From NCBI GenBank assembly GCA_964434285.1, contig CAYSUJ010000001.1, forward strand, positions 304,564 to 368,563: a DNA stretch of 64,000 bases, given 5' to 3'. Source of the DNA: an uncultured Candidatus Saccharibacteria bacterium (GTDB taxonomy: Bacteria > Patescibacteriota > Minisyncoccia > Phycocordibacterales > UBA2100). A model generated the notes under the pieces. The model was given only the letters and a program-made list of their open reading frames with translations. It ran no database searches and had not been told where the DNA came from. Positions 5,677-48,555 of this stretch are shown here, in pieces. The position numbers and the translations under genes were made by a program. The first letter of the stretch is position 1. The number at the start of each line of letters is the position of its first letter.

Positions 5677-5701
5677 ACTACTACCACGAGGGGTGCAAGA
5701 C

Positions 5702-5804
5702 GGGAGGCAAAAATGTCTCACGAGGGACCCCGCAGCTGGCGAGGATGAGCCTGATTTGCAAGCATGCAAATCAGGTCTGCCCGAGGGAGAGATTTTTGCC
5801 TCCC
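5702..5804. repeat. nested-hairpin structured repeat, copy 1; second copy at 46034-46142
   Basis: Outer 18-bp stem gggaggcaaaaatgtctc/gagagatttttgcctccc. Conserved junction ACGAGGGACCCCGCAGCTGGCGAGGAT. Inner hairpin cctgatttgca-agc-tgcaaatcagg. Conserved CCCGAGGGAG. Between copies the stems are wholly different while the junctions are identical. Confidence 0.6.
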
Positions 5805-5815
5805 GCGAGCACCCC

Positions 5816-8800
5816 TTATCCAACCTTCTCCTCCTCCACCGGCGCCATCGCAGCTTCTGCCGCAGCGAGCTCATTCTGGAGCGCGGTAATCATCTCGTTC
5901 TTCTTGGAGCCTTTGTAGCCGGTTCCAGCCGGGATAAGGCGACCAATGATGACATTCTCCTTAAGACCAACCAGCCTATCCACAGAGCCAGAAACTGCCG
6001 CCTCTGCGAGCTTACGCGGCGTGTTCTGGAAGGAGATTGCCGAGAGGAATGACGCACGCGTGAGCGAGACTTCAGTGATACCGAGGAGCAGCTGTTTGCC
6101 TTTTGCAGGCTCCTTGCCCTCATCCTTCATCACTTTGTTGATGCGCTCGAACTCGAAGTCGGCAACGATTTCGCCTGCGGAGATGCCCGTGTCGCCCGAA
6201 TGCGTGACGGAGATACGGCTAAACATCTGCTTAACGATTATTTCCAAGTGCTTACGCGCAGTAGAGACACCCTGCAGCTCGTAGATGCGCGTAATTTCAG
6301 CGATCACATAATCCTGAGCACGCTCCTTACCTGCGAGCAAGAAGAGTTCATCGAGGTCTGCCGAACCATCCGTGAGGAAGTCGCCCTTCTTTACCGAATC
6401 CCCTGCCTTCACGAGCAGTGTACGAGCTGGAGGAATGCGATATTCGGTATCGCGCTTTGTCGATTTGCCCGTATCTGGCGTGATGATGAGCACCGTTTCC
6501 ATGCCATCCTTCGCGATGTCGGTAATGACGCCGTCGACGCGTGCAATAGCTGCGGGAGACTTCGGCATGCGCGTTTCGAAGACTTCTTCAACGCGCGGGA
6601 GACCCATGGTGATGTCACCGCCTGCTGTCGCCACACCGCCGGTGTGGAACGTACGCATGGTGAGCTGAGTACCCGGTTCACCGATAGCCTGTGCGGCAAC
6701 GACTCCGACAGCTTCCCCAAGATCAATAAGCTGACCGTTGGAGAGGTCAACGCCATAACACTTCTGACAGACACCACGCGCCACCTTACAGGTGATCGGT
6801 GATCGTACGAGTGCCTGCGCAGCGTCCGAAGCTTCGATTGCTCTTGCATCATCACGAGAGAGTAGTGTATTGCGCTTAAAGTTTACACCAGTTGCTTCAA
6901 TCGTCTCAGCGAGGACGCGGCCTGCAAGACGTCCAGCGAACGAATCGCCGAGCTCTTCCTTACCGGGGCGGGCAATGAGAATGCCCTCCTTTGTGCCACA
7001 ATCTTCCTCGAGCACCACAACGTCGTGTGCGACATCGAAGAGACGGCGCGTGAGATACCCTGCGCGTGCCGTGTTCAAGGCGGTGTCGGCGAGACCCTTA
7101 CGCGCACCGTGTGTTGAGGTGAAGTATTCGATTGGTGTGAGACCCTCCTTGAGAGAAGAGAGAATCGGGAATTCAATGACTTCTCCACGCGGGTTCGTGA
7201 TGAGACCCTTCATGCCTGCCATCTGGTGCAGCTGCACAACGGAACCACGAGCGCCAGAGGTGATCATGTTATGCACCGGACCCTTCGGATCCAGTGCTTC
7301 CACAACATGCTTGCGAAGTTCGCCGGATGCCTTTGCCCAGATCTCGATCGTTGCGCGTCGGCGCTCCTCGTCGGTAAGAAGACCGTTTTCGTAGTTTTCT
7401 CGCTCCTTCGCCACAGCTTCCTTCGCTTCGTCGACGAGTCCGTCTTTCATTTCAGGAACGTGGACGTCAGAGATTGACCACGTGATTCCCGCATGTGTTG
7501 CATACTTGAATCCGAAGTTCTTGATCTTGTCGATGATCGCTGGAATGCCGTCGAGCGAGTAGTGCGTCACGAGTTCGTGCACGAGTGCACCCATCTTCTT
7601 GTTCGTGATCTCGTCATTGAAGTACGGGAAGTCGCTCGGGAGTACAGAGTTGAAGAGGAGGCGCCCGACAGATGTCTCGAACGGCTTCCCCTCGAATCGC
7701 GCGTACTTCTTGTTTTCGGTCGGAAGAACCCAAATCTTGGCCCTGAGATCAACTGCACCAAAGTCGTGTGCGGTGATAGCCGCATTCGTCGAAGGATATG
7801 TCGTACCCTCGCCCTTTGAGCCGTCGATCATTCGAGTCATCCAGTAGCACCCAAGCACAATGTCGAGGAGCTTCGAAGCAACAACGACATCGCCCGAACC
7901 CGGCTTCAAGACGTTCTTGTTTGCCGACATGATCTTTGCTGCTTCCATTTGCGACTCTTCAGAGAGTGGCACGTGAATCGCCATCGCATCGCCGTCGAAG
8001 TCTGCGTTGTATGCAGGACAGACAAGCGGGTGGATCTGAAGCGCATTACCTTCGGTGAGCACTGGACGGAATGCCTGAATTGATTGGCGGTGAAGTGTCG
8101 GTGCGCGGTTCAAGAGCACGTGCTTACCCTTAATTGCTTCTTCGAGAATGGGCCAAACTTCCGGTGCCTCGTCTTCGATGAGACGACCCGCGCCACGAAT
8201 ATTGTATGCGTGTTCGCGCTGGAGGAGACCCTGAATCACAAACGGGCGGAACAACTCAAGTGCCATATGCTTCGGCACGCCGCACTCATCGAGCGCGAGG
8301 TGAGGCCCAACGACGATGACGGATCGACCTGAGTAGTCGACGCGCTTACCAAGAAGGTTCTGGCGGAGATACCCGTGCTTGCCCTTCAAGTAATCGGCAA
8401 GCGATTTGAGAGCACGGCGGCGTCCACCAAGAACGCCAAGGACACCTGCGCCACGACGCATGGAGTTGTCCAAAAGCGCGTCCACCGCTTCCTGAAGAAT
8501 ACGCTTTTCGTTGCGGAGGATGACGTCTGGCGCATGGATCGCAAGCAAGCGCTTCAAGCGATTGTTGCGGTTGATGACACGGCGGTAGAGATCGTTAAGA
8601 TCAGACGATGCGTGACGACCACCCTCGAGGGCGACCATCGGACGAAGTGCCGGAGGCACAACGGGAAGACGCGTGAGGAACATCCACTCCGGGCGCACGC
8701 CGGCACGATGCATCGCCTGTGCGAGGGCAAGTCGCTTGCGTACCTTGTCGCGCTCAGCGGCTGGGGCTTTATCATACTCAGCGGAAACATTTTGAATGAA

Positions 8801-9513: not shown

Positions 9514-12500
9514 TTATGCGTCGTTATTCTCGCTTTTAAATTCCAAGTCGATGCCAAGCCCTCGCAGGTGTCGAACCAAGACGTTGAAGGTGGCTGGTGT
9601 GTTTGATTCTTTAATGCGCTCACCGGAAACGATGGCGTCGAATGCAGCGGAGCGTCCGAGGATATCGTCAGACTTATAGGTGAGAATTTCGCGAAGTGAG
9701 TGAGCGGCACCGTAGCCGAGGAACGCCCACACTTCCATTTCTCCAACGCGCTGACCACCGTTCTGCGCCTTACCGCCGAGTGGCTGCTGTGTGGTGAGGC
9801 TGTAGGGACCAATAGAGCGCATGTGGATCTTGTCTTCCACCATGTGGTGCAGCTTGAGCATGTACATCACACCGACCGAAACTGGTTGCGCAAACGCTTC
9901 GCCAGTTCGTCCGTCGAAGAGCACGCGCTTGCCGTCATCGCGGAAGCCTGCCTCCTTGAGTTCTGCCTTAATTTCATCTTCGGTTGCGCCTGCGAACGAT
10001 GGCACCACTGCCTGATAACCAAGCTCGGTTGCCGCGAGTCCCAAGTGAAGCTCGAGAATCTGTCCCAGGTTCATACGACTCGGCACGCCAAGCGGCGTGA
10101 GAATGATGTCGACCGGATTCCCTTCTGCGTCGAATGGCATATCTTCTTCAGGAAGCACGCGTGAGATGACACCCTTGTTACCGTGTCGCCCAGCGAGCTT
10201 ATCGCCGACAGACACAGTGCGGAGCTGTGCTACTTCCACGTGCACACGCTTAATGACACCACTCTCGAGAGAATCGCCGTTTTCGCGTGAGAATACTTTG
10301 ACCGAAATGACGCGACCGCGCTTTCCGCCCTCCATGCGCATTGAGGTGTCCTTCACGTCCTTTGCCTTCTCTCCGAAGATCGCGTGGAGAAGTCGCTCTT
10401 CTGGCGTGAGCTGCGTTTCCCCCTTCGGCGTTACTTTGCCGACGAGAATATCACCTGTTCGCACCTCTGCACCAATGCGGATAATGCCTTCTTCGTCGAG
10501 GTTTCTAAGCTTGAATTCAGAGACGTTCGGAATGTCGTGCGTTGTCACCTCAGGCCCAAGCTTGGTGTCACGCACCACACAGACGAACTCTTCCATATGA
10601 ATGGAAGTAAAGCGCGCTTCTTTTGCGAGCTTTTCAGAGATGATGATTGCGTCTTCGAAGTTCGCACCGGACCATGGAAGAAATGCGACACGCACGTTTT
10701 GTCCGATCGCAAGGTGACCGCGGTCGGATGTTGCAGAGTCGGCAAGCACGCTTCCCTTCTTCACCTTATCGCCCACAGAAACGGAAGGGCGCTGATGGAA
10801 GCACGTAAAGCCGTTTGTTCGAGAGAAATTAATGAGGTTATATTCCTTTGATTTTCCGTCTGCGTTCTTGACCTTGATTGTCTTTGCATCGACGGCAATC
10901 ACTTCTCCCGCTTCTTCAACAAGGAGCATACGCCCCGAATCGCGCGCAGCACTCTCTTCAATACCCGTTGCCACAACCGGCGCATCAGGAATGACGAGCG
11001 GCACCGCTTGCTTCTGCATGTTTGAACCCATGAGTGCGCGGTTTGCGTCGTCGTTTTCGACGAACGGAATGAGAGATGTTGCGACTGAGAACGGCTGATT
11101 CGTTGCGATTTCCATCAAATCCACGTCAGCACGCGCGACGATTGTTGGCTCGCCTTCTTTGCGCACCTCGACGACACTCGGAATGATCTTACCGTCTTCA
11201 TCGACGGGTGTCGCCGCGTGGGCGATCGCATGCATCTCTTCCTCAAGAGCATTCATATACACCACCTCTTTTGTCACCTTTCCTTTCTCCACTTTTGCAT
11301 ACGGAGTTTCGATGATGCCGAATTCGTTTGGGCGAGCATAGAGTGCCATGTGAAGCACGAGGCCGATGTTCTTACCTTCCGGGGTATGGATCGGACACAC
11401 GCGACCGTAGTGTGATGCGTGCACGTCGCGCACTTCAAGACCTGCGCGCTCAGAAACGAGTCCGCCGCGGCCGAGTGTCGAGAGCGTGCGGAGGTGTTCG
11501 ATCTCATCAAGCGAGTTGTACTGCTGCATAAGCTGGGAGAGCTGATCGGTCGTGAAGAACTCGCGAATCGCAGCCTGGAAAGGGCGCGGATTCACAAAGT
11601 TCACCGGGAGCGATGTCTCTGCTTCAACCATGGCCATACGATCCTGGATGTTACGCTTCATGCGCGAGAGGCCGATGCGCATGCGCTGTTCGAGCAGTTC
11701 ACCCACAAAACGAACGCGACGGAAGCCGAGGTGATCAATGTCATCCGGTTCTGCCTTTGGATCGTTATTCGATTGTGCGATGAGGGTGATGATGCGCGCG
11801 ATATCGTCGACAGAAAGCGTCGAGCGTGCGAGATCTTTCTCCGATGTCGGAAGACCGAAGCGTCGATTGAAGTGGAAGCGACCGACTTTTGAGAGGTCGT
11901 AGCGCTCTTCTGAAAGAAGTGAGGCAACGTGGTCGACCGCCGTATCTGCCGTTGCAATATCACCATCACGAAGGCGTCGGTAAATCTCCACTGCCGCCTC
12001 TGCGCTTGTCTTTGCGGTATCAACGGCAAGCGTTGCACGTACCGCAGCAAGGGCGTTTTCATCGCGGAAGTGCGTGAGAATCTGCGCATCGGTCGATGCG
12101 CCCAAGACGCGAAGGAGCGAGGTCACCGGGAAACGGCGCTTGCGATCCACTTTCACGTAAATGGCGTTATCCGCATCAGACTCGATCTCGATCCACACGC
12201 CACGAGACGGGATAATCTTCGCGGCAAAATAATTCACACCCTTCACGAGAACCGTCTCGAAGAAAACACCGTAGGAACGCGCAAGTTGTGGCACGACGAT
12301 ACGCTCAACGCCGTTGATGATGAAGGTCCCGTGCTTGGTCATCCACGGAAAATCTGCAATGAAGATCTCCTGGCTCTTCTCTGAACCCGTCGTCTTATTT
12401 TTAAGCGTCGCAGTCAACGAAAGTGGCGCTTCGTAGGTGCGCATCATGCGCTTTGCATATTCCTCATCGAATCGCACGGGGCCAAACGTGAAATCAGACA

Positions 12501-26158: not shown

Positions 26159-26205
26159 CTCCCAACAATAGCAACGGGAAGCACCCCATGACTGAGAAAT
26201 CCCCA

Positions 26206-26921
26206 ACCATGTAGGACACGCCGTGTCCTACATTTCGATCCTTATACTCTCCTCTGTAAGTGAAGGCGTATTGATCAGGGCTGCAATTTCGATGCGTTGG
26301 TTTTTTGCGCTCCCTAGGAGCGCTTTTAGAACACGATTATCGATGACTGAAGGGAAATTTCTCTCACCCATATAATCAAGATAACTACTCCATCGATACT
26401 CATGGAGGTACGCAAGAGCATCCGACACCTTTTTTACATTTCCCTGTCTCCATTCGGGCATCGAAAAATCCAGTGGGTTAAGGTGTATGTAGTATGGTAT
26501 GTAGTTGAAATGCGCATCGCGCTGAAGGTGTATTTTTTTAAAGACACCCTGCCAAAGCACGCCACTACGCGAATACTTTTCGTTGAAATATTTTGCATAT
26601 CCCATGCCTAACTTTTGAGCAAAACGAGAAACATACACCGCATCGTCATCGACCGGAGAAAGAAGGAGGTGGTAATGATTGTCCATCAGACACCATGCAT
26701 GAATGTGCACGAGGCGTTTATGATTTCTATCTCTACGCTCTCGCACATGTCTATGGGCCACTATTTTCTGATTATTAAGTTCATACAAGTCGCTTACGAA
26801 TCGAGCCCGATCCCCATCGTCGAGCACAATTTTTCTTTTTTCTACGCCCCTGTTGAGAATGTGATAAAAATCCATGATTCACTTAACTGTACCATGTAGG
26901 ACACGCCGTGTCCTACATGGT
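26206..26921. mobile_element. IS200/IS605-like (RAYT-like) unit: a Y1 HUH transposase gene bounded by identical perfect palindromes
   Basis: accatgtaggacacgccgtgtcctacat at 26206-26233 and the same sequence extended to a 31-bp palindrome at 26891-26921. The tnp stop codon lies inside the left palindrome. Confidence 0.7.
26228..26875 (-). CDS. Y1 (HUH) tyrosine transposase, IS200/RAYT family
   Basis: FYHILNRG N-terminus, HUH motif HAWCLMDNHYHLLL, and a downstream Tyr-containing YRWSSY region; 215 aa. Confidence 0.75.
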   Translation of the reverse strand: MDFYHILNRGVEKRKIVLDDGDRARFVSDLYELNNQKIVAHRHVRERRDRNHKRLVHIHAWCLMDNHYHLLLSPVDDDAVYVSRFAQKLGMGYAKYFNEKYSRSGVLWQGVFKKIHLQRDAHFNYIPYYIHLNPLDFSMPEWRQGNVKKVSDALAYLHEYRWSSYLDYMGERNFPSVIDNRVLKALLGSAKNQRIEIAALINTPSLTEESIRIEM

Positions 26922-26953
26922 CGAGGCAAGCGCCGCCTTATATAATCCTCGAC

Positions 26954-32575: not shown

Positions 32576-32697
32576 AGATGTTTGTAGGGATTAGTAATAT
32601 CTGTACTCTGCTTCGGAAACGGCCGCTTTGCAAGCTTTTGCAAAGCGGCCGTCCCGTTTCACTTTTGGAGCGGCCGCGAGGCCTTTCGGGCGGCGGC

Positions 32698-33951
32698 TTA
32701 GCTGCGGTTAATCACGATGCGGGGCATCGAGCCATCGTGTGCCTTCACGATAGCCATCGAATCGTTCGTGCCCGCGCTCTTTCGGAGCGAAGCGACGATC
32801 GGAGCAACACGAGCCTCTGCTGCACGGAGCGCTGCGGCTTCCTTCTCGACGAGAATCGGTGCCTTAGGAGCAACAACTGCAGGAAGTGGCTTCTGTGTGC
32901 GCTTCGGGAGCATAGTGCCTGCGAAGGCGAACGCACCACCGCGGTAGTAGATCATGAGATAACTACCAGCGAATGCGAAAGCGATAAGAGCAGCCCAGTA
33001 GAGCGCGTTACCGATAGGACCAAGATCGAAGCCTGTGTATGGAATCTGGGTAAGAGACACATACGGCTGCTGCACAACTGGCGGAATGTAGACCGGCGGC
33101 TGCACAGGAGGCGTGTAGGTGTAGCCCTGGACGGTCGTTGAGCAGGTTGCGCTCGTGCCATTGTAACCATAGACGGTAAGCGTGTAGGTCGTCGTGTAGC
33201 CAGGATAGACCGTACGAGAACCTGAGACTTCAACAGAACCGACGTTCGAGAGGTATGCGCTCGATGCGTTCGTCGAAGACCATGAGAGGTATGCACTGTT
33301 GTTTCCGTAGTTGTAGTGACCACCCGAGAGTGCGTGGTTGATTGTGCAGTACGGAGCAGGATAGGTCTGGACGACAGGCACCTGCGGAGTCGCAACAACG
33401 ATAGAGGTGTTACCGCTATTGTAGTTGTTGAAGCTGTCTCGGATTGAGTTGTCGATGTTCGTCACGTTGTTCACGTTGGTGTTTGTCACCGTGTTGCTAT
33501 TGTAGTTCGAAGACGAACCGCCGGTAGAACGTGGTGGTTGGCTGTAGGATGGCACCCACGTGCTGTATCCCATGCCGTAGTTGCTGCCATAACTTCCGCC
33601 GCAGTATGATCCACAGCCGTAGTCGTACAAGGGAGTGTAGTAGTCGTAGCCCGCATCGTAGCCATAGTATCCGGCATCATAGCCTTCGTACCCAGCATCG
33701 TAGCCGTAATAGCCACTGTCGTAACCATTGTCGCCCCAAGAGCCAGCGTCATAGCCACCACCCCATAGGCCAGAGTCATAGCCAGTATCGGACCAAAGGC
33801 TGTCGCCGTTATACCCACCATCACCCCAGTAGCCACCATCGTAGCCGCCTTCGTACCAAAGATCTGCGGATGCAGAACCAGGAACAACGACACCTGCGAA
33901 GATGATGAAAACTGCGAGCACTTTAACGATACCGAGTGTATAAGAATTCAT
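32698..33951 (-). CDS. secreted Gly/Tyr-repeat and Asn-rich surface protein with an IPYTG motif plus TM anchor. The ORF track extends to 34356; the likely start is the ATG at 33951
   Basis: Signal peptide MNSYTLGIVKVLAVFIIFAGVVVPGSASA. GYDxGY repeats. One module paralogous to the neighbouring gene (LSWSSTNASSAYLSNVG...TLTVYGYNG). Pro-rich stalk. LTQIPYTGFDLG plus TM and a about 100-aa tail. Confidence 0.6.
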   Translation of the reverse strand: MNSYTLGIVKVLAVFIIFAGVVVPGSASADLWYEGGYDGGYWGDGGYNGDSLWSDTGYDSGLWGGGYDAGSWGDNGYDSGYYGYDAGYEGYDAGYYGYDAGYDYYTPLYDYGCGSYCGGSYGSNYGMGYSTWVPSYSQPPRSTGGSSSNYNSNTVTNTNVNNVTNIDNSIRDSFNNYNSGNTSIVVATPQVPVVQTYPAPYCTINHALSGGHYNYGNNSAYLSWSSTNASSAYLSNVGSVEVSGSRTVYPGYTTTYTLTVYGYNGTSATCSTTVQGYTYTPPVQPPVYIPPVVQQPYVSLTQIPYTGFDLGPIGNALYWAALIAFAFAGSYLMIYYRGGAFAFAGTMLPKRTQKPLPAVVAPKAPILVEKEAAALRAAEARVAPIVASLRKSAGTNDSMAIVKAHDGSMPRIVINRS

Positions 33952-45212: not shown

Positions 45213-46022
45213 TTAAAATTGATTGACGAACCGCAGATCAGCAGAGTGCATAAGACGAATATCGTCAATTCCCCAGCGAAGCATGGCGAGGCGATCGAGC
45301 CCCATACCGAAGGCAAAGCCATGATACTTTTCCGAGTCGATCCCGGCATTTTTGAGCACATTGGGATGTATCATCCCCGCACCCATCATTTCAATCCACT
45401 TGTCACGAAGTTTCTCGGGAACGTGTTCGCCCACGAGACGCATATCCACCTCGACCGACGGCTCAGTAAACGGGAAGAAGCTTGGGCGAAATCGAATCTC
45501 AACCGATGCGCCTTTAAAAAGTTCCTTGAAAAATCGTTCAAGCGTTCCCTTCAGGTGCGCCATCGTAATGTCTTCGCCGACGGCAAACCCCTCGATTTGG
45601 AAAAACTCCGCCTCGTGCGTCATATCGGTTGCTTCGTTTCGGAAGACTTTCCCGGGCACGATGACGCGATACGGTGGCATAACGCCTTTTTTCACTTGTT
45701 CCTCCATATAGCGGATTTGTACCGGTGAGGTGTGCGTGCGAAGAACTTTCCCCGGTTCGTCCTTGATGAAAAAGGTATCCTGCATGTCGCGAGCTGGGTG
45801 GTTTTTCGGCACATTGAGCGCATCGAAATTATGCCACTCGTCTTCGAGGAGTGGCCCCTCCGCAAACACGAATCCCATACGGGAGAATATGTGATTTGCC
45901 TCACGGATGAGGCTTGAGATGGGGTGTATGTGCCCTCGTTGCATACACGAGAGTATACCCCCACACTTATTTTCCTGAAAGAAAATAAATGTGGGGGGTA
46001 TAGCGTTTCCTTCTCCAGCCAC
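45213..46022 (-). CDS. pheS: phenylalanyl-tRNA synthetase alpha subunit (catalytic core only)
   Basis: Class II motifs FFQIEGFAV and GFAFGMGLDRLAMLRWGIDDIRL. Confidence 0.85.
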   Translation of the reverse strand: MAGEGNAIPPTFIFFQENKCGGILSCMQRGHIHPISSLIREANHIFSRMGFVFAEGPLLEDEWHNFDALNVPKNHPARDMQDTFFIKDEPGKVLRTHTSPVQIRYMEEQVKKGVMPPYRVIVPGKVFRNEATDMTHEAEFFQIEGFAVGEDITMAHLKGTLERFFKELFKGASVEIRFRPSFFPFTEPSVEVDMRLVGEHVPEKLRDKWIEMMGAGMIHPNVLKNAGIDSEKYHGFAFGMGLDRLAMLRWGIDDIRLMHSADLRFVNQF

Positions 46023-46033
46023 TAACCAACTGA

Positions 46034-46142
46034 GAGAAATGCGGGGAGTACCTCACGAGAGGCCCCGCAGCTGGCGAGGATCTGCCCGTTTTTCAAGCTT
46101 GAAAAACGGGTTTACCCGAGGGAGGTACTCCCCGCATTTCTC
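46034..46142. repeat. nested-hairpin structured repeat, copy 2, in the 12-nt-spaced leader of pheS
   Basis: Outer 21-bp stem gagaaatgcggggagtacctc/gaggtactccccgcatttctc; conserved ACGAGAGGCCCCGCAGCTGGCGAGGAT; inner hairpin cccgtttttcaagc/gcttgaaaaacggg; conserved CCCGAGGGAG. Confidence 0.6.
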
Positions 46143-46145
46143 CCA

Positions 46146-46970
46146 CTACAACCCCCCCACTTCGTAAAGTGCTTCCCCGGATTTGATGATGAGTGCCCCG
46201 TCAATAATGCGCATGTCCGTTTTTTCTGCACCATAGATTTGAGCAGCGATTGGCGTCGCACGAATATCAATCTCAGCAAAATAAATGCCGCCCTCTTTCG
46301 TGCGGTAGACGACACCACTTCCAAAGAAGCGCGCATCAATCGCCTCGCCCCCGAATCGCTTTATCGAAACCTCAGATTCGCAGAGAGACGGACTCGGACA
46401 AAAAGCGGCCGGCGGTTGTCCGTCTTCCGTCCAACGTGCGAGCACGTCACCGTCTTCAAGGACAAGCGTCACACCGCCTCGCTCGTCGAGCGGCAGTGTT
46501 GTGGTGGCCGTTGATGTCGCAAAGGCAGCGCGCATAGTTGTGTTCAGTGCCTCCGACACAATGCGCGTCCCGGTCGCAGAACCCGAAAGAACGAGCTCGG
46601 TGAGCGTTATTTCTTCAGGAAGCAACACGGCGTCGGCACTCGTGACGAGCTGCGGCTCGACGATGAGTATTCTTCTCCATGGTCGCGCTCCGTCTCGCTC
46701 AACCCGAACCGCATACGCGGCAGGAGCAAGATCATCGACGTAAAACGAGCGCTGAAGAAAACCAGTCTCACCAATCCGTTCGTCGTCGACAATAACGCGC
46801 GCATCAGGGTATGGCACCGAAATGTAAATACCGCCCGTTTTTACGATTCCGACGCCCGGTTCGAAACGCCATCCATCCGCATAGAAAATCGTAATGGGAA
46901 GACCAACGACAAAAATCAGCGAGAATACAGTGAGATACAAACGACGGCGAGAGCGTGGGAGAGGTTCCAT
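46146..46970 (-). CDS. membrane-anchored hypothetical protein. The likely start is the ATG at 46970; the ORF track extends to 47012
   Basis: N-terminal TM LYLTVFSLIFVVGLPITIFY then a soluble domain; directly downstream of the GT2 gene. Confidence 0.45.
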   Translation of the reverse strand: MEPLPRSRRRLYLTVFSLIFVVGLPITIFYADGWRFEPGVGIVKTGGIYISVPYPDARVIVDDERIGETGFLQRSFYVDDLAPAAYAVRVERDGARPWRRILIVEPQLVTSADAVLLPEEITLTELVLSGSATGTRIVSEALNTTMRAAFATSTATTTLPLDERGGVTLVLEDGDVLARWTEDGQPPAAFCPSPSLCESEVSIKRFGGEAIDARFFGSGVVYRTKEGGIYFAEIDIRATPIAAQIYGAEKTDMRIIDGALIIKSGEALYEVGGL

Positions 46971-46971
46971 A

Positions 46972-48555
46972 CTATGTGCTCGCACGACTCTTCGGCGTGA
47001 CCCAAAAACCAAGATAGCGTCCGGTCATGAGGCGGAACTGCGATTCAAGCCCGGGAATAGAGCTAAAAATGATCATGGTGAACGGTACGAGTATCCACTG
47101 TAACACCATGAGCGCGTGGCGGTATCGCGGTATGTGCGCAGGGCGTTCAGGTAATAGGTACATGCAAATAGCGGCAGAAACAACGAGACCAAACATCGCA
47201 AGCGTGAGAAACGAACGAGCAATGAGAGGCAAATTGTGTGAGAGAACCGTCGTATTGAAGGCGGTACCCCCGACAAGGAGCGGGAGCCATCCGACGGAGA
47301 AGAGAATGATTGGGTGTGTCGCGAGTGACCAAAATCCCTCGATTTGTACGAGCGATGCGCGGATACGCTTACCGAGTGGTATTCGCTTGTTTTTATAACT
47401 CACCCAGAGGATGTAGGCGATGTTTTCTGCGCCATAGGTCCAGCGGCGGTGCTGCTTGTAAATATTCTTTACGGTACCCAGGAAGGTAGGAGCAACATTT
47501 GCATCCATGGACACCGGATATGCCATCGGAACAACGTGGTAGTCGCCGTCGAAGCGCGCAAACATATTCCAAAAAATGCGCGAATCTTCGGAAACAACAT
47601 TGCGCTGCCAATAACCGGCCTCGTGGAGAGATTTAAAAATGACTGCGTGCGATGAAAAGGTGGCCAGCTTCTCCGGGCGCTCTTGCTGTATCATCTGCCA
47701 AAAAGAACTTGAGTATGCGATGACACGAGAAAGCAACGGCGCCTCCCAGATGTTGTTGTGATACAGGGGGACCGGCTGAAATGACGTGCGCTCAGGGTTC
47801 GGAGAGGAGAGCACATGCCAGGTGAGGCACGCGAAATACTGTGGGTACACCACCGTGTCGGAATCAAACGCAGAGACAACCACGTGTTCATAGGGAAGAC
47901 TGTGCTTGTCGAGTATGTATTTTCGGGCTTCTTCCGCCGCGTAGGAGAGGTTTGATCCCTTCCCCGGAATGTCACCCGGAAGGCCGTCCGGATGAACAGT
48001 CACGAGAATGTCGAGGAAGCGGTCCGCGTATTCTTCCTGCAAACGTCGCGCAGTTGCATGATGCTCCTCACCTGCACGTGCTTCTGCCGCAATCACGACC
48101 GCGATAGTTTTCGGATCCCAGTCGGCGTGAGCGAGCGCGTCGATCGATTCCTTCAAGACCTCATACGGCTCGTCATAAAAGGGAAACATGACGAGGTGGA
48201 TAAGGTACGGCTCAGCGCGTGCAGGCACATGCGGCAGATCGTGTAATCTCTCGCGCCAGTTCACCTGCATGTTGTGACGCATGCGTTTGAAGTTGTAACG
48301 CAAGTGTACCGAGAGATAGGCAGTTTTAAAGAGCCAGTACGCAGCAAAGACAATCGTGAGATATGCCGCCCACACGGGCTTGCGAAACGAGAGGAAGATG
48401 AGGATGGCGAGGGTCCCGTAAGACAGGACGCCAGGTAGTATCTCAAAGGCTCTGAAGAGCATACGCTCGCGACCGATGAGATCAGTCGCGCGAGCGATGT
48501 GGAGATAGGAGTATTCTGAAGGAAGTTGGGAGCTGGAAGTGTGTAGCTCTTTCAT
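46972..48555 (-). CDS. family-2 glycosyltransferase, processive membrane type (CesA/NodC-like)
   Basis: DSD DxD motif, QHRRWTYGAE (QxxRW) motif and multiple TM helices at both ends. Confidence 0.7.
   Translation of the reverse strand: MKELHTSSSQLPSEYSYLHIARATDLIGRERMLFRAFEILPGVLSYGTLAILIFLSFRKPVWAAYLTIVFAAYWLFKTAYLSVHLRYNFKRMRHNMQVNWRERLHDLPHVPARAEPYLIHLVMFPFYDEPYEVLKESIDALAHADWDPKTIAVVIAAEARAGEEHHATARRLQEEYADRFLDILVTVHPDGLPGDIPGKGSNLSYAAEEARKYILDKHSLPYEHVVVSAFDSDTVVYPQYFACLTWHVLSSPNPERTSFQPVPLYHNNIWEAPLLSRVIAYSSSFWQMIQQERPEKLATFSSHAVIFKSLHEAGYWQRNVVSEDSRIFWNMFARFDGDYHVVPMAYPVSMDANVAPTFLGTVKNIYKQHRRWTYGAENIAYILWVSYKNKRIPLGKRIRASLVQIEGFWSLATHPIILFSVGWLPLLVGGTAFNTTVLSHNLPLIARSFLTLAMFGLVVSAAICMYLLPERPAHIPRYRHALMVLQWILVPFTMIIFSSIPGLESQFRLMTGRYLGFWVTPKSRAST

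Follow-up and report, generated by a model that had tools for sequence, protein, structure and literature searches.

Between an ORF without a Pfam match and pheS, both on the minus strand of the window (the whole stretch of 64 000 nucleotides that was analyzed), lies a large structured element that is one of two such copies in this stretch and is denoted here copy 2. The features of the locus, listed in minus-strand order from the upstream gene to pheS, are the following:

46146..47012, minus strand: upstream ORF of 288 aa, without a Pfam match, called as 274 aa in relatives
46031..46145, minus strand: copy 2 of the element, with a type A core, delineated by inverted repeat I5, the predicted fold and covariance model R1
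46122..46145, minus strand: 5' arm of the closing helix P1, UGGGAGAAAUGCGGGGAGUACCUC, from the inverted repeat and the fold
46111..46121, minus strand: 5' junction strand CCUCGGG-UAAA, in which CCUCGGG is constant in 11 of 11 type A copies
46085..46110, minus strand: P2 hairpin of 11 bp with the loop AGCU and covariation at 7 of the 11 pairs among the copies
46063..46079, minus strand: P3 hairpin CCUCGC-CAGCU-GCGGGG with a U.G pair, from the type A alignment
46055..46062, minus strand: 3' junction strand CCUCUCGU (family consensus YCCCUCG-NN), from comparison of the copies
46031..46054, minus strand: 3' arm of P1, GAGGUACUCCCCGCAUUUCUCUCA, from the inverted repeat and the fold
45954..46002, minus strand: second palindrome with 21-bp arms, TATACCCCCC...GGGGGTATA, the 3' arm of which carries the pheS -10 region
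45952..45957, minus strand: putative pheS -10 box TATACT (GGGGTATACT), from the consensus, 7 nt 5' of the ATG
45213..45944, minus strand: pheS, 243 aa, the short form without the N-terminal domain, from Pfam, public calls and homologues

The segments 46034-46054 and 46122-46142 form a perfect 21-nt inverted repeat, with arms that are present exactly twice (0 expected by chance), and the repeat grows to 24 nt (46031-46054 and 46122-46145) at 96% complementarity. Folded as minus-strand RNA, the 115 nt of copy 2 yield a 24-bp closing helix (P1) and a three-way junction, at -73.4 kcal/mol compared with -41.4 +/- 3.6 kcal/mol for dinucleotide shuffles (z = -8.9), and covariance model R1 scores 129 bits across 46023-46152. 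The inverted repeat and the fold agree, so that the structured element that was originally predicted at 46034-46142 is real. The minus strand reads, in order, the UAG stop codon of the 288-aa ORF (46148-46146), UGGGAGAAAUGCGGGGAGUACCUC, CCUCGGG-UAAA, P2, the P2-P3 linker CAGAU, P3, CCUCUCGU and GAGGUACUCCCCGCAUUUCUCUCA. The stop codon directly abuts the element, as had been claimed, and copy 2 most likely belongs to the 3' UTR of the 288-aa gene. The earlier statement that no terminator separates the element from pheS holds as well: no canonical one was found, and the element is not followed by a U-tract.

The original prediction also noted the lack of a T-box consensus, and indeed no Rfam family at all was matched: at the gathering score, the whole window yielded no T-box, ribozyme or riboswitch but tRNAs only, and the region 45900-46250 gave no match at E <= 10. 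ARAGORN reports only two ordinary tRNAs in the window, and the element is not tRNA-like or tmRNA-like. No copies beyond the two were detected within the window by the covariance model with the filters off or by regular expressions for the boxes that flank most members of the family, the other matches being ordinary hairpins. One hairpin, CCGCUUUGCAAGCUUUUGCAAAGCGG at 32611-32690, is similar to P2 (17 bits, E = 0.024-0.04), comes without the junction strands and P1, is terminator-like and is probably unrelated. Elsewhere in the window, positions 33623-33880 contain a 21-nt periodic repeat of the TCGTAGCCNGCATCGTAGCCA-like type (families D1, D3 and D8), which is probably a repetitive minus-strand coding region.

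The element had been placed 12 nt before a pheS start at 46022 and interpreted as a cis-regulator in the pheST leader. However, GTG 46022 is no more than the in-frame start codon that comes first in the pheS ORF. Counted from this codon, the tRNA-synt_2d core domain (Pfam) begins at residue 27; public assemblies call a 243-aa PheS from ATG 45944; and the homologues are 238-260 aa long, mostly 243-246. The pheS start is ATG 45944, not GTG 46022, so that the gene begins 86 nt, rather than 12 nt, from the end of the element, with most of the gap being occupied by the second palindrome. The region immediately upstream of the gene reads GGGGGTATACT-CTCGTGT-ATG, which puts GGGGTATACT at 7 nt from the ATG. 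In the relatives, the gene order is the same as in the window (glycosyltransferase, 274-aa gene, pheS, pheT, gyrB), and the identity of PheS, the distance from the upstream gene to pheS and the -10 region are as follows:

L028: PheS 94% identical, 12 nt to pheS, CATACT-CAGCAT-ATG (N6), read as DNA
L029: PheS 95% identical, 13-28 nt to pheS, CATACT-CACGCCT-ATG (N7), read as DNA
L030/L031: PheS 88% identical, 83 nt to pheS, GGGGTATACT-AGCCGCT-ATG (N7) in L030, read as DNA
P0038 contig: PheS 89% identical, 57 nt to pheS, upstream gene on the opposite strand, from gene coordinates only

A -10-like hexamer is thus found 6-7 nt 5' of the pheS ATG in the window, L028, L029 and L030, and, on the strength of the consensus and of this conservation in three relatives, the pheS promoter is probably located downstream of copy 2, the pheS mRNA appearing to be leaderless. 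Because of this probable promoter, copy 2 would lie outside any pheS leader. The element itself is missing near pheS in all relatives examined, three as DNA and P0038 by coordinates: the covariance model finds none in L028, L029, L030 and L031, where pheS follows the 274-aa gene much too closely to accommodate it, and there is no room for it before pheS in P0038 as judged from the gene coordinates alone. The comparison shows copy 2 as a lineage-specific gain, confined to the window lineage.

An attenuator-like or T-box-like leader that controls pheST is, accordingly, extremely improbable. In its favor is the position upstream of pheS with no canonical terminator in between, but the true pheS start lies 86 nt downstream, its ATG being preceded at 7 nt by a conserved -10 box, the relatives examined have no element at pheS, there is no T-box, and the other copies, described below, follow unrelated genes. 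From the proposal that copy 2 is transcribed with the pheST leader or an intercistronic region, the pheS leader has to be dropped, whereas a minus-strand intergenic or 3'-UTR location is most likely, and the role as a processing element that was also proposed is a live possibility. No new mechanism of pheS regulation follows from this locus, and annotation pipelines should not call the element a leader.

The distance between the putative -10 box and the pheS start has many counterparts in the relatives. Among the 93 called genes of L028, L029, L030, L093, L094 and L095, TANNNT ends 6-9 nt 5' of the start codon in 36 (~40%), compared with a background of 0-3 at most other offsets and slight peaks, of 6 each, at 0 and 23, and this arrangement is the commonest single pattern 5' of gene starts. 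With TANNNT so near the start codons of 36 genes, many mRNAs of these Paceibacteria would be leaderless, and a -10 box at such a distance in ~40% of the genes is useful for the annotation of both start codons and promoters in CPR genomes. These boxes often are of the TGGTATAAT-like extended -10 type, GGAGG being present in a minority of genes only, and the motif TATCTCAYGGGGTATA(C/G)T recurs upstream of several leaderless genes in the relatives.

The palindrome of the second kind that precedes pheS is a separate feature, with the promoter motif (C/T)A(C/T)GGGGTATACT as its 3' arm and an inverted copy of the motif as its 5' arm. An analogous palindrome, TATACCCCGTGAGATA...TATCTCACGGGGTATACT, occupies the same place before pheS in L030 (9923-9995), with an interior that differs from that in the window, and none is present in L028 and L029. 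In L029, a PemK-family toxin gene (10721-11173) is located between pheS and pheT; it is not found in the window or L028.

The other copy in the window, copy 1, lies behind rpoC, and the relevant features are:

5690..5815, minus strand: copy 1, type A core plus the boxes UGCUCGC and GUCUUGC, in the rpoC 3' UTR, R1 score 122 bits
5630..5667, minus strand: intrinsic terminator hairpin 3' of copy 1, kept in relatives

Copy 1 proper (5701-5805) starts 10 nt past the rpoC stop codon (5816-5818). The 73-nt cores of copies 1 and 2 are 82% identical, with compensatory changes in the P2 hairpin, and the outer stems are unrelated in sequence, both being paired. The homologous core and the paired outer stem confirm the original claim of the same architecture, reused behind rpoC. 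An element is present between the rpoC stop and the conserved terminator in the window and in L094; given this placement, copy 1 is inside the rpoC transcript, and, because a separate, conserved terminator follows, it is not the terminator of rpoC.

Core-pattern scans of genome and metagenome collections yielded nine more true copies, the remaining matches being chance ones in GC-rich genomes; the copies from the genome collections come from metagenome assemblies of Candidatus Paceibacterota, Kaiserbacteria and Minisyncoccia. The R1 scores of the 11 type A copies are 113-148 bits. Three other core types, B, 'long B' and C, were found in the rpoC loci of the relatives by R1 or by the box-pattern search, and the total is ~22 elements in 217 kb of Paceibacteria DNA, including the two in the window. 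The comparison shows that copy 2 belongs to a family of intergenic elements of Paceibacteria (Kaiserbacteria-like CPR) that are structured, modular and present in multiple copies.

The members of this family share a closing helix, P1, of 19-24 bp, the sequence of which is free while the pairing is kept, capped by a conserved internal loop, CCCUC / UCG-NN, below an apical multi-helix core. Outside P1, most copies, although not copy 2, have conserved direct boxes, CGCUCGC on the 5' side and GUCUCGCU on the 3' side, which are not mutually complementary. The apical core comes as type A, B, long B or C. Type B has other P2 and P3 sequences with the same junction strands, CCCUCGGG and CCCUCGUGA; long B, with 212 nt and about seven helices, is represented by three copies, taken from two organisms or more, and when these copies are aligned over their full length (~220 nt), ~93% of the columns are identical; type C differs in its interior, with ...GCUGCGCGAGGUUC in common. 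In the model-fitted alignment of the 11 type A copies, 96.8% of the cells are paired, compared with 76% after shuffling and 35-51% with slid partners, and changes on both sides are found in 18 of the 19 P1 pairs and in 7 of the 11 P2 pairs. By contrast with these, P1b of type A is invariant, and so is P3 save for one substitution in L014. Mismatches limit what can be read from wobble pairs: P1 has 10 A.C mismatches, about the number of the non-invariant G.U pairs, and two C.A mismatches occur in P2 when it is read on the proposed RNA strand. With A.C about as frequent as G.U, wobble pairs do not prove that the stem is selected at the RNA level, and the palindrome may instead be maintained at the DNA level.

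The family is uncatalogued until now. Types A, B, long B and C have no match in Rfam at either gathering or permissive thresholds (window and eight related loci), and no description of the element was found in the searchable literature on structured RNAs, MITEs and leaderless mRNAs of CPR/Patescibacteria. No copy was detected by blastn in the phage and plasmid collections, and neither of two pattern scans of IMG/VR revealed one, the outcome being nil or 59 chance matches without support from the covariance model. In a public assembly of the same strain, one contig (L026) is broken off within the element, its position 1 corresponding to model position 26. Such a long perfect helix is probably an obstacle to the assembly of short reads, and the elements may be under-represented in metagenome assemblies.

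All of the ~22 copies are intergenic or located in 3' UTRs except L030_x, the first ~24 nt of which overlap the 3' end of a called gene. In 18 of the 22 elements, the stop codon of an ORF with 120 or more codons in the same orientation precedes the start of P1 by 0-38 nt, and in 13 by at most 15 nt, the upstream genes being rpoC (four genomes), nusG (two), rpoD, khpA, a NUDIX hydrolase gene, a pilin-like gene and others; one copy, L012a, is antisense to its neighbouring genes. The family is tied to the 3' ends of many unrelated genes, not to pheS. In the 24 kb of L095, three copies come after genes of the plus strand and one after a gene of the minus strand, so that the orientation tracks the gene and its transcription rather than a fixed DNA strand. 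The khpA copy is embedded in a conserved rpsP-khpA-trmD operon; the 9 nt that separate its end from the start of trmD contain no -10 box, and transcription therefore must read through it. At L012 1083-1341, a type A element (plus strand) and a type B element (minus strand) stand tail to tail between the stop of one gene and the leaderless promoter of the next, TGTATAAT-N7-ATG.

A very stable helix right after stop codons, as well as the convergent pair of elements between genes in L012, could be the work of a factor-dependent or otherwise unconventional terminator, or of an insulator, that ends the upstream transcript. Nevertheless, such a role is very improbable: there is no U-tract after the element, the copy between khpA and trmD requires read-through, and at rpoC a canonical terminator comes 30-40 nt further downstream and is retained where the element has been deleted.

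The evolution of the family combines constraint with turnover. L004 and L015 carry a type A copy at the same site after nusG; the third codon positions of nusG are 58% identical between them, the P1 arms are 53-63% identical and still paired, and the core is 90% identical. Given that the P1 arms are near-neutral yet paired, the pairing and the core are constrained and the P1 sequence is not. In L004, the last ~57 nt of nusG are duplicated 1.2 kb downstream (81-143 and 1445-1510, 91% identical), and the duplicates bracket the element and two genes, one for a NUDIX and one for an NYN-domain protein, as if a small island had been integrated at the 3' end of nusG. No comparable 3'-end duplication was found at 16 other element sites, and duplication of a gene 3' end was rejected as a general signature of cassette integration (only L004 nusG, 0/16 elsewhere).

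After rpoC, the element has been deleted in L091/L092 (RpoC 95% identical), where the boxes remain and the emptied site reads ACUCGC-CUUUCU-GUCUCG before the same terminator. The orthologous post-rpoC site harbors type A in the window, B in L093, C in L094 and long B in L095; in L094, the core is decayed and P1 and the boxes are perfect. On one contig, L012a and L024 have 100% identical cores and 47% identical P1, and the core of copy 2 is 92% identical to those of L014 and L021, from other organisms, compared with 80% to copy 1 in this set of comparisons. Among all copies with cores that are 76-100% identical, the P1 arms are 16-74% identical. These comparisons suggest that the cores act like exchangeable cassettes within persistent hairpins, the exchange occurring by gene conversion or insertion.

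Turnover of this kind could also reflect a selfish palindrome at the DNA level, similar to MITE, REP or PATE, that is mobilized in trans by a transposase recognizing ssDNA folds and tolerated in 3' UTRs without any RNA function. This is possible, if on the unlikely side. It would be in line with the presence or absence of the element among close relatives, with identical cores and unrelated P1 at different loci of one genome, with the same core types at different loci across genomes and different types at one locus, and with the lack of a wobble-pair strand signal in the stems; in addition, the window encodes an IS200-like Y1 transposase (26228-26875) between identical GTAG hairpins, and a possible imperfect direct repeat of 10-12 nt surrounds copy 2 (GTTGTAGTGG versus GTTGGTTAGTGG). 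However, the terminal inverted repeats, which are the normal targets of transposases, are the least conserved part of the element; the transposase's own hairpins are unrelated to it in sequence; the orthologous copies at rpoC and nusG persist, paired, across genomes with near-saturated synonymous sites; the orientation matches the upstream gene, even for a minus-strand gene in a plus-strand locus; and the phage, plasmid and viral collections contain no copies. With respect to target-site duplication, CUCGC is present in both flanks of most copies, but it recurs throughout, and the emptied site of L091 still has both boxes.

The reading that we prefer, at about even chances, is that the element is a co-transcribed structured repeat of the 3' UTR or intercistronic region, comparable to ERIC and REP, and that copy 2 is not a regulator of the pheST leader. 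The copies would be transcribed as the tail of the upstream mRNA, and any effect in cis would fall on the upstream message, as with REP, ERIC and Correia elements. The candidate modes of action, suggested largely by analogy, are that the terminating ribosome would encounter the stable helix, that RNase III would cut the perfect duplex of 19-24 bp, and that 3' exonucleases would be blocked. In Escherichia coli, REPs stabilize the upstream mRNA, block 3' exonucleases and contribute to termination, and a REP within 15 nt of the stop codon stalls the ribosome and triggers trans-translation (PMC5082802). RNase III, RNase J and PNPase belong to the small set of RNases that at least 90% of CPR genomes keep (PMC12641178). 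The family would spread, or swap its core, by duplication or gene conversion. What speaks against the preferred reading is the terminator that follows the element at rpoC, which would make protection of the 3' end redundant there. The antisense copy L012a, the missing boxes of copy 2 and the mismatches in P1 and P2 also count against it. Furthermore, the conservation of the core exceeds the needs of a simple stabilizer hairpin and suggests a specific partner or activity. It is this extreme core conservation, together with the redundant protection at rpoC, that keeps alive both the selfish palindrome discussed above and a new class of functional RNA.

Such a class could be a self-cleaving ribozyme, a protein-binding module or a 3'-UTR sRNA, with the junction and apical helices as the active part, P1 as a generic stem and the boxes as processing sites. 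It is quite unlikely, even though invariant junction strands and a near-invariant P3 combined with covarying P1 and P2 constitute a ribozyme-like or aptamer-like pattern, the conserved core types are several and paralogous, one of them being a long form of about seven helices, purifying selection acts on the core when synonymous sites serve as the reference, and Rfam offers no match. Against it count the decayed core at the L094 rpoC site, where P1 and the boxes stay perfect, the outright loss of the element in L091, and host genes that are too varied for a gene-specific, riboswitch-like role. In its most far-reaching version, which is unlikely, the elements would make up a new Paceibacteria superfamily of large structured 3'-UTR RNAs, with cores that are self-cleaving or bound by a dedicated protein or RNase and that punctuate operons by setting the upstream 3' end. 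If that were the case, spacing of the khpA-trmD type (~10 nt) would release a near-leaderless downstream mRNA, in organisms with a strong reliance on leaderless translation.

Some tiny, streamlined CPR genomes carry about one element of 105-212 nt per 10 kb, with cores that are nearly constant across genomes with near-saturated synonymous sites and with locations so close to the stop codons of core genes (rpoC, rpoD, nusG and khpA) that they fall within a ribosome footprint. This is either an unusually successful selfish element in repeat-poor genomes or an undescribed layer of post-transcriptional control.

Among the known systems, ERIC (IRU) sequences are imperfect palindromes in transcribed intergenic or UTR positions, with a sequence that is conserved across species, locations that differ and a presence that varies by locus; no transposase is known for ERIC or for the present family. 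The element resembles ERIC as an imperfect palindrome of ~100-130 nt at transcribed non-coding sites, with variable presence per locus, and it is a multi-copy palindrome in non-coding positions with conserved cores at non-orthologous loci. There is no sequence similarity between the two, and, unlike in ERIC, it is the center of the element (the three-way junction) that is conserved, the terminal stem being the variable part; the existence of several core types, the flanking boxes, the adjacency to stop codons and the CPR host are further differences. Correia (NEMIS) elements of Neisseria and BOX elements of the pneumococcus are co-transcribed repeats with a length of ~100-150 nt and a fold into long hairpins; those of the Correia type are substrates of RNase III, and BOX elements consist of end modules that pair around variable middle modules. 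Correia elements have conserved terminal inverted repeats of 26 bp and a TA target duplication, whereas in the present family the terminal helix is the variable part and there is no consistent duplication. A classical MITE was rejected because the copies share no conserved terminal inverted repeats, given the low identity of the P1 arms.

REP and BIME are similar to the element in being palindromes at gene 3' ends and between cistrons, with a high copy number and modular mosaics, and the 13 elements that start at most 15 nt from a stop codon are at the distance at which REP stalls ribosomes (PMC5082802). REP, however, is a simple hairpin of 20-40 nt with a 5' GTAG that is recognized by RAYT, whereas the element is branched, 105-212 nt long and has no GTAG. 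A RAYT-associated REP was rejected on account of the family consensus, which lacks GTAG, and of the different palindrome that flanks the Y1_Tnp gene of the window. That minus-strand gene scores 24.2 bits for Pfam Y1_Tnp (cut-off 23) and lies between two identical 28-nt palindromes, ACCATGTAGGACACGCCGTGTCCTACAT (26201-26233 and 26894-26926), with GTAG at the foot of the stem, the whole being a RAYT/REP-like unit; the palindrome was not found elsewhere in the window or in the fetched loci.

Integron attC sites (~60-140 nt, sometimes with branched tips) likewise come directly after the stop of a co-oriented gene, preserve structure over sequence and fold in a strand-specific manner. Yet attC keeps the basal R''/R' inverted (RYYYAAC / GTTRRRY) and varies the center, the reverse of the element, and was rejected: the boxes CGCUCGC and GUCUCGCU are direct and not complementary, they have no GTT/AAC, and no integrase or cassette array was seen. 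TIGR arrays, which like IS110 bridge RNAs occur in CPR and phages, belong to RNA-guided systems and consist of tandem 8-12 nt edge and loop repeats with ~9-nt spacers beside a Tas (Nop-domain) gene (PMC12045711); the copies here are solitary, with mutually complementary arms of 19-24 nt and no array. The architecture does not fit an IS110 bridge RNA; the conserved cores of hammerhead and twister (CUGANGA/GAAA etc.) are absent by eye, in agreement with Rfam; and a T-box or known pheST attenuator was discarded in view of the missing covariance match, the probable promoter downstream and the lack of conservation at pheS of the relatives. By analogy, the element appears to work most like the repeats of the ERIC/REP type, from which it is set apart by the conserved branched core, the variable terminal helix, the direct boxes and the CPR host.
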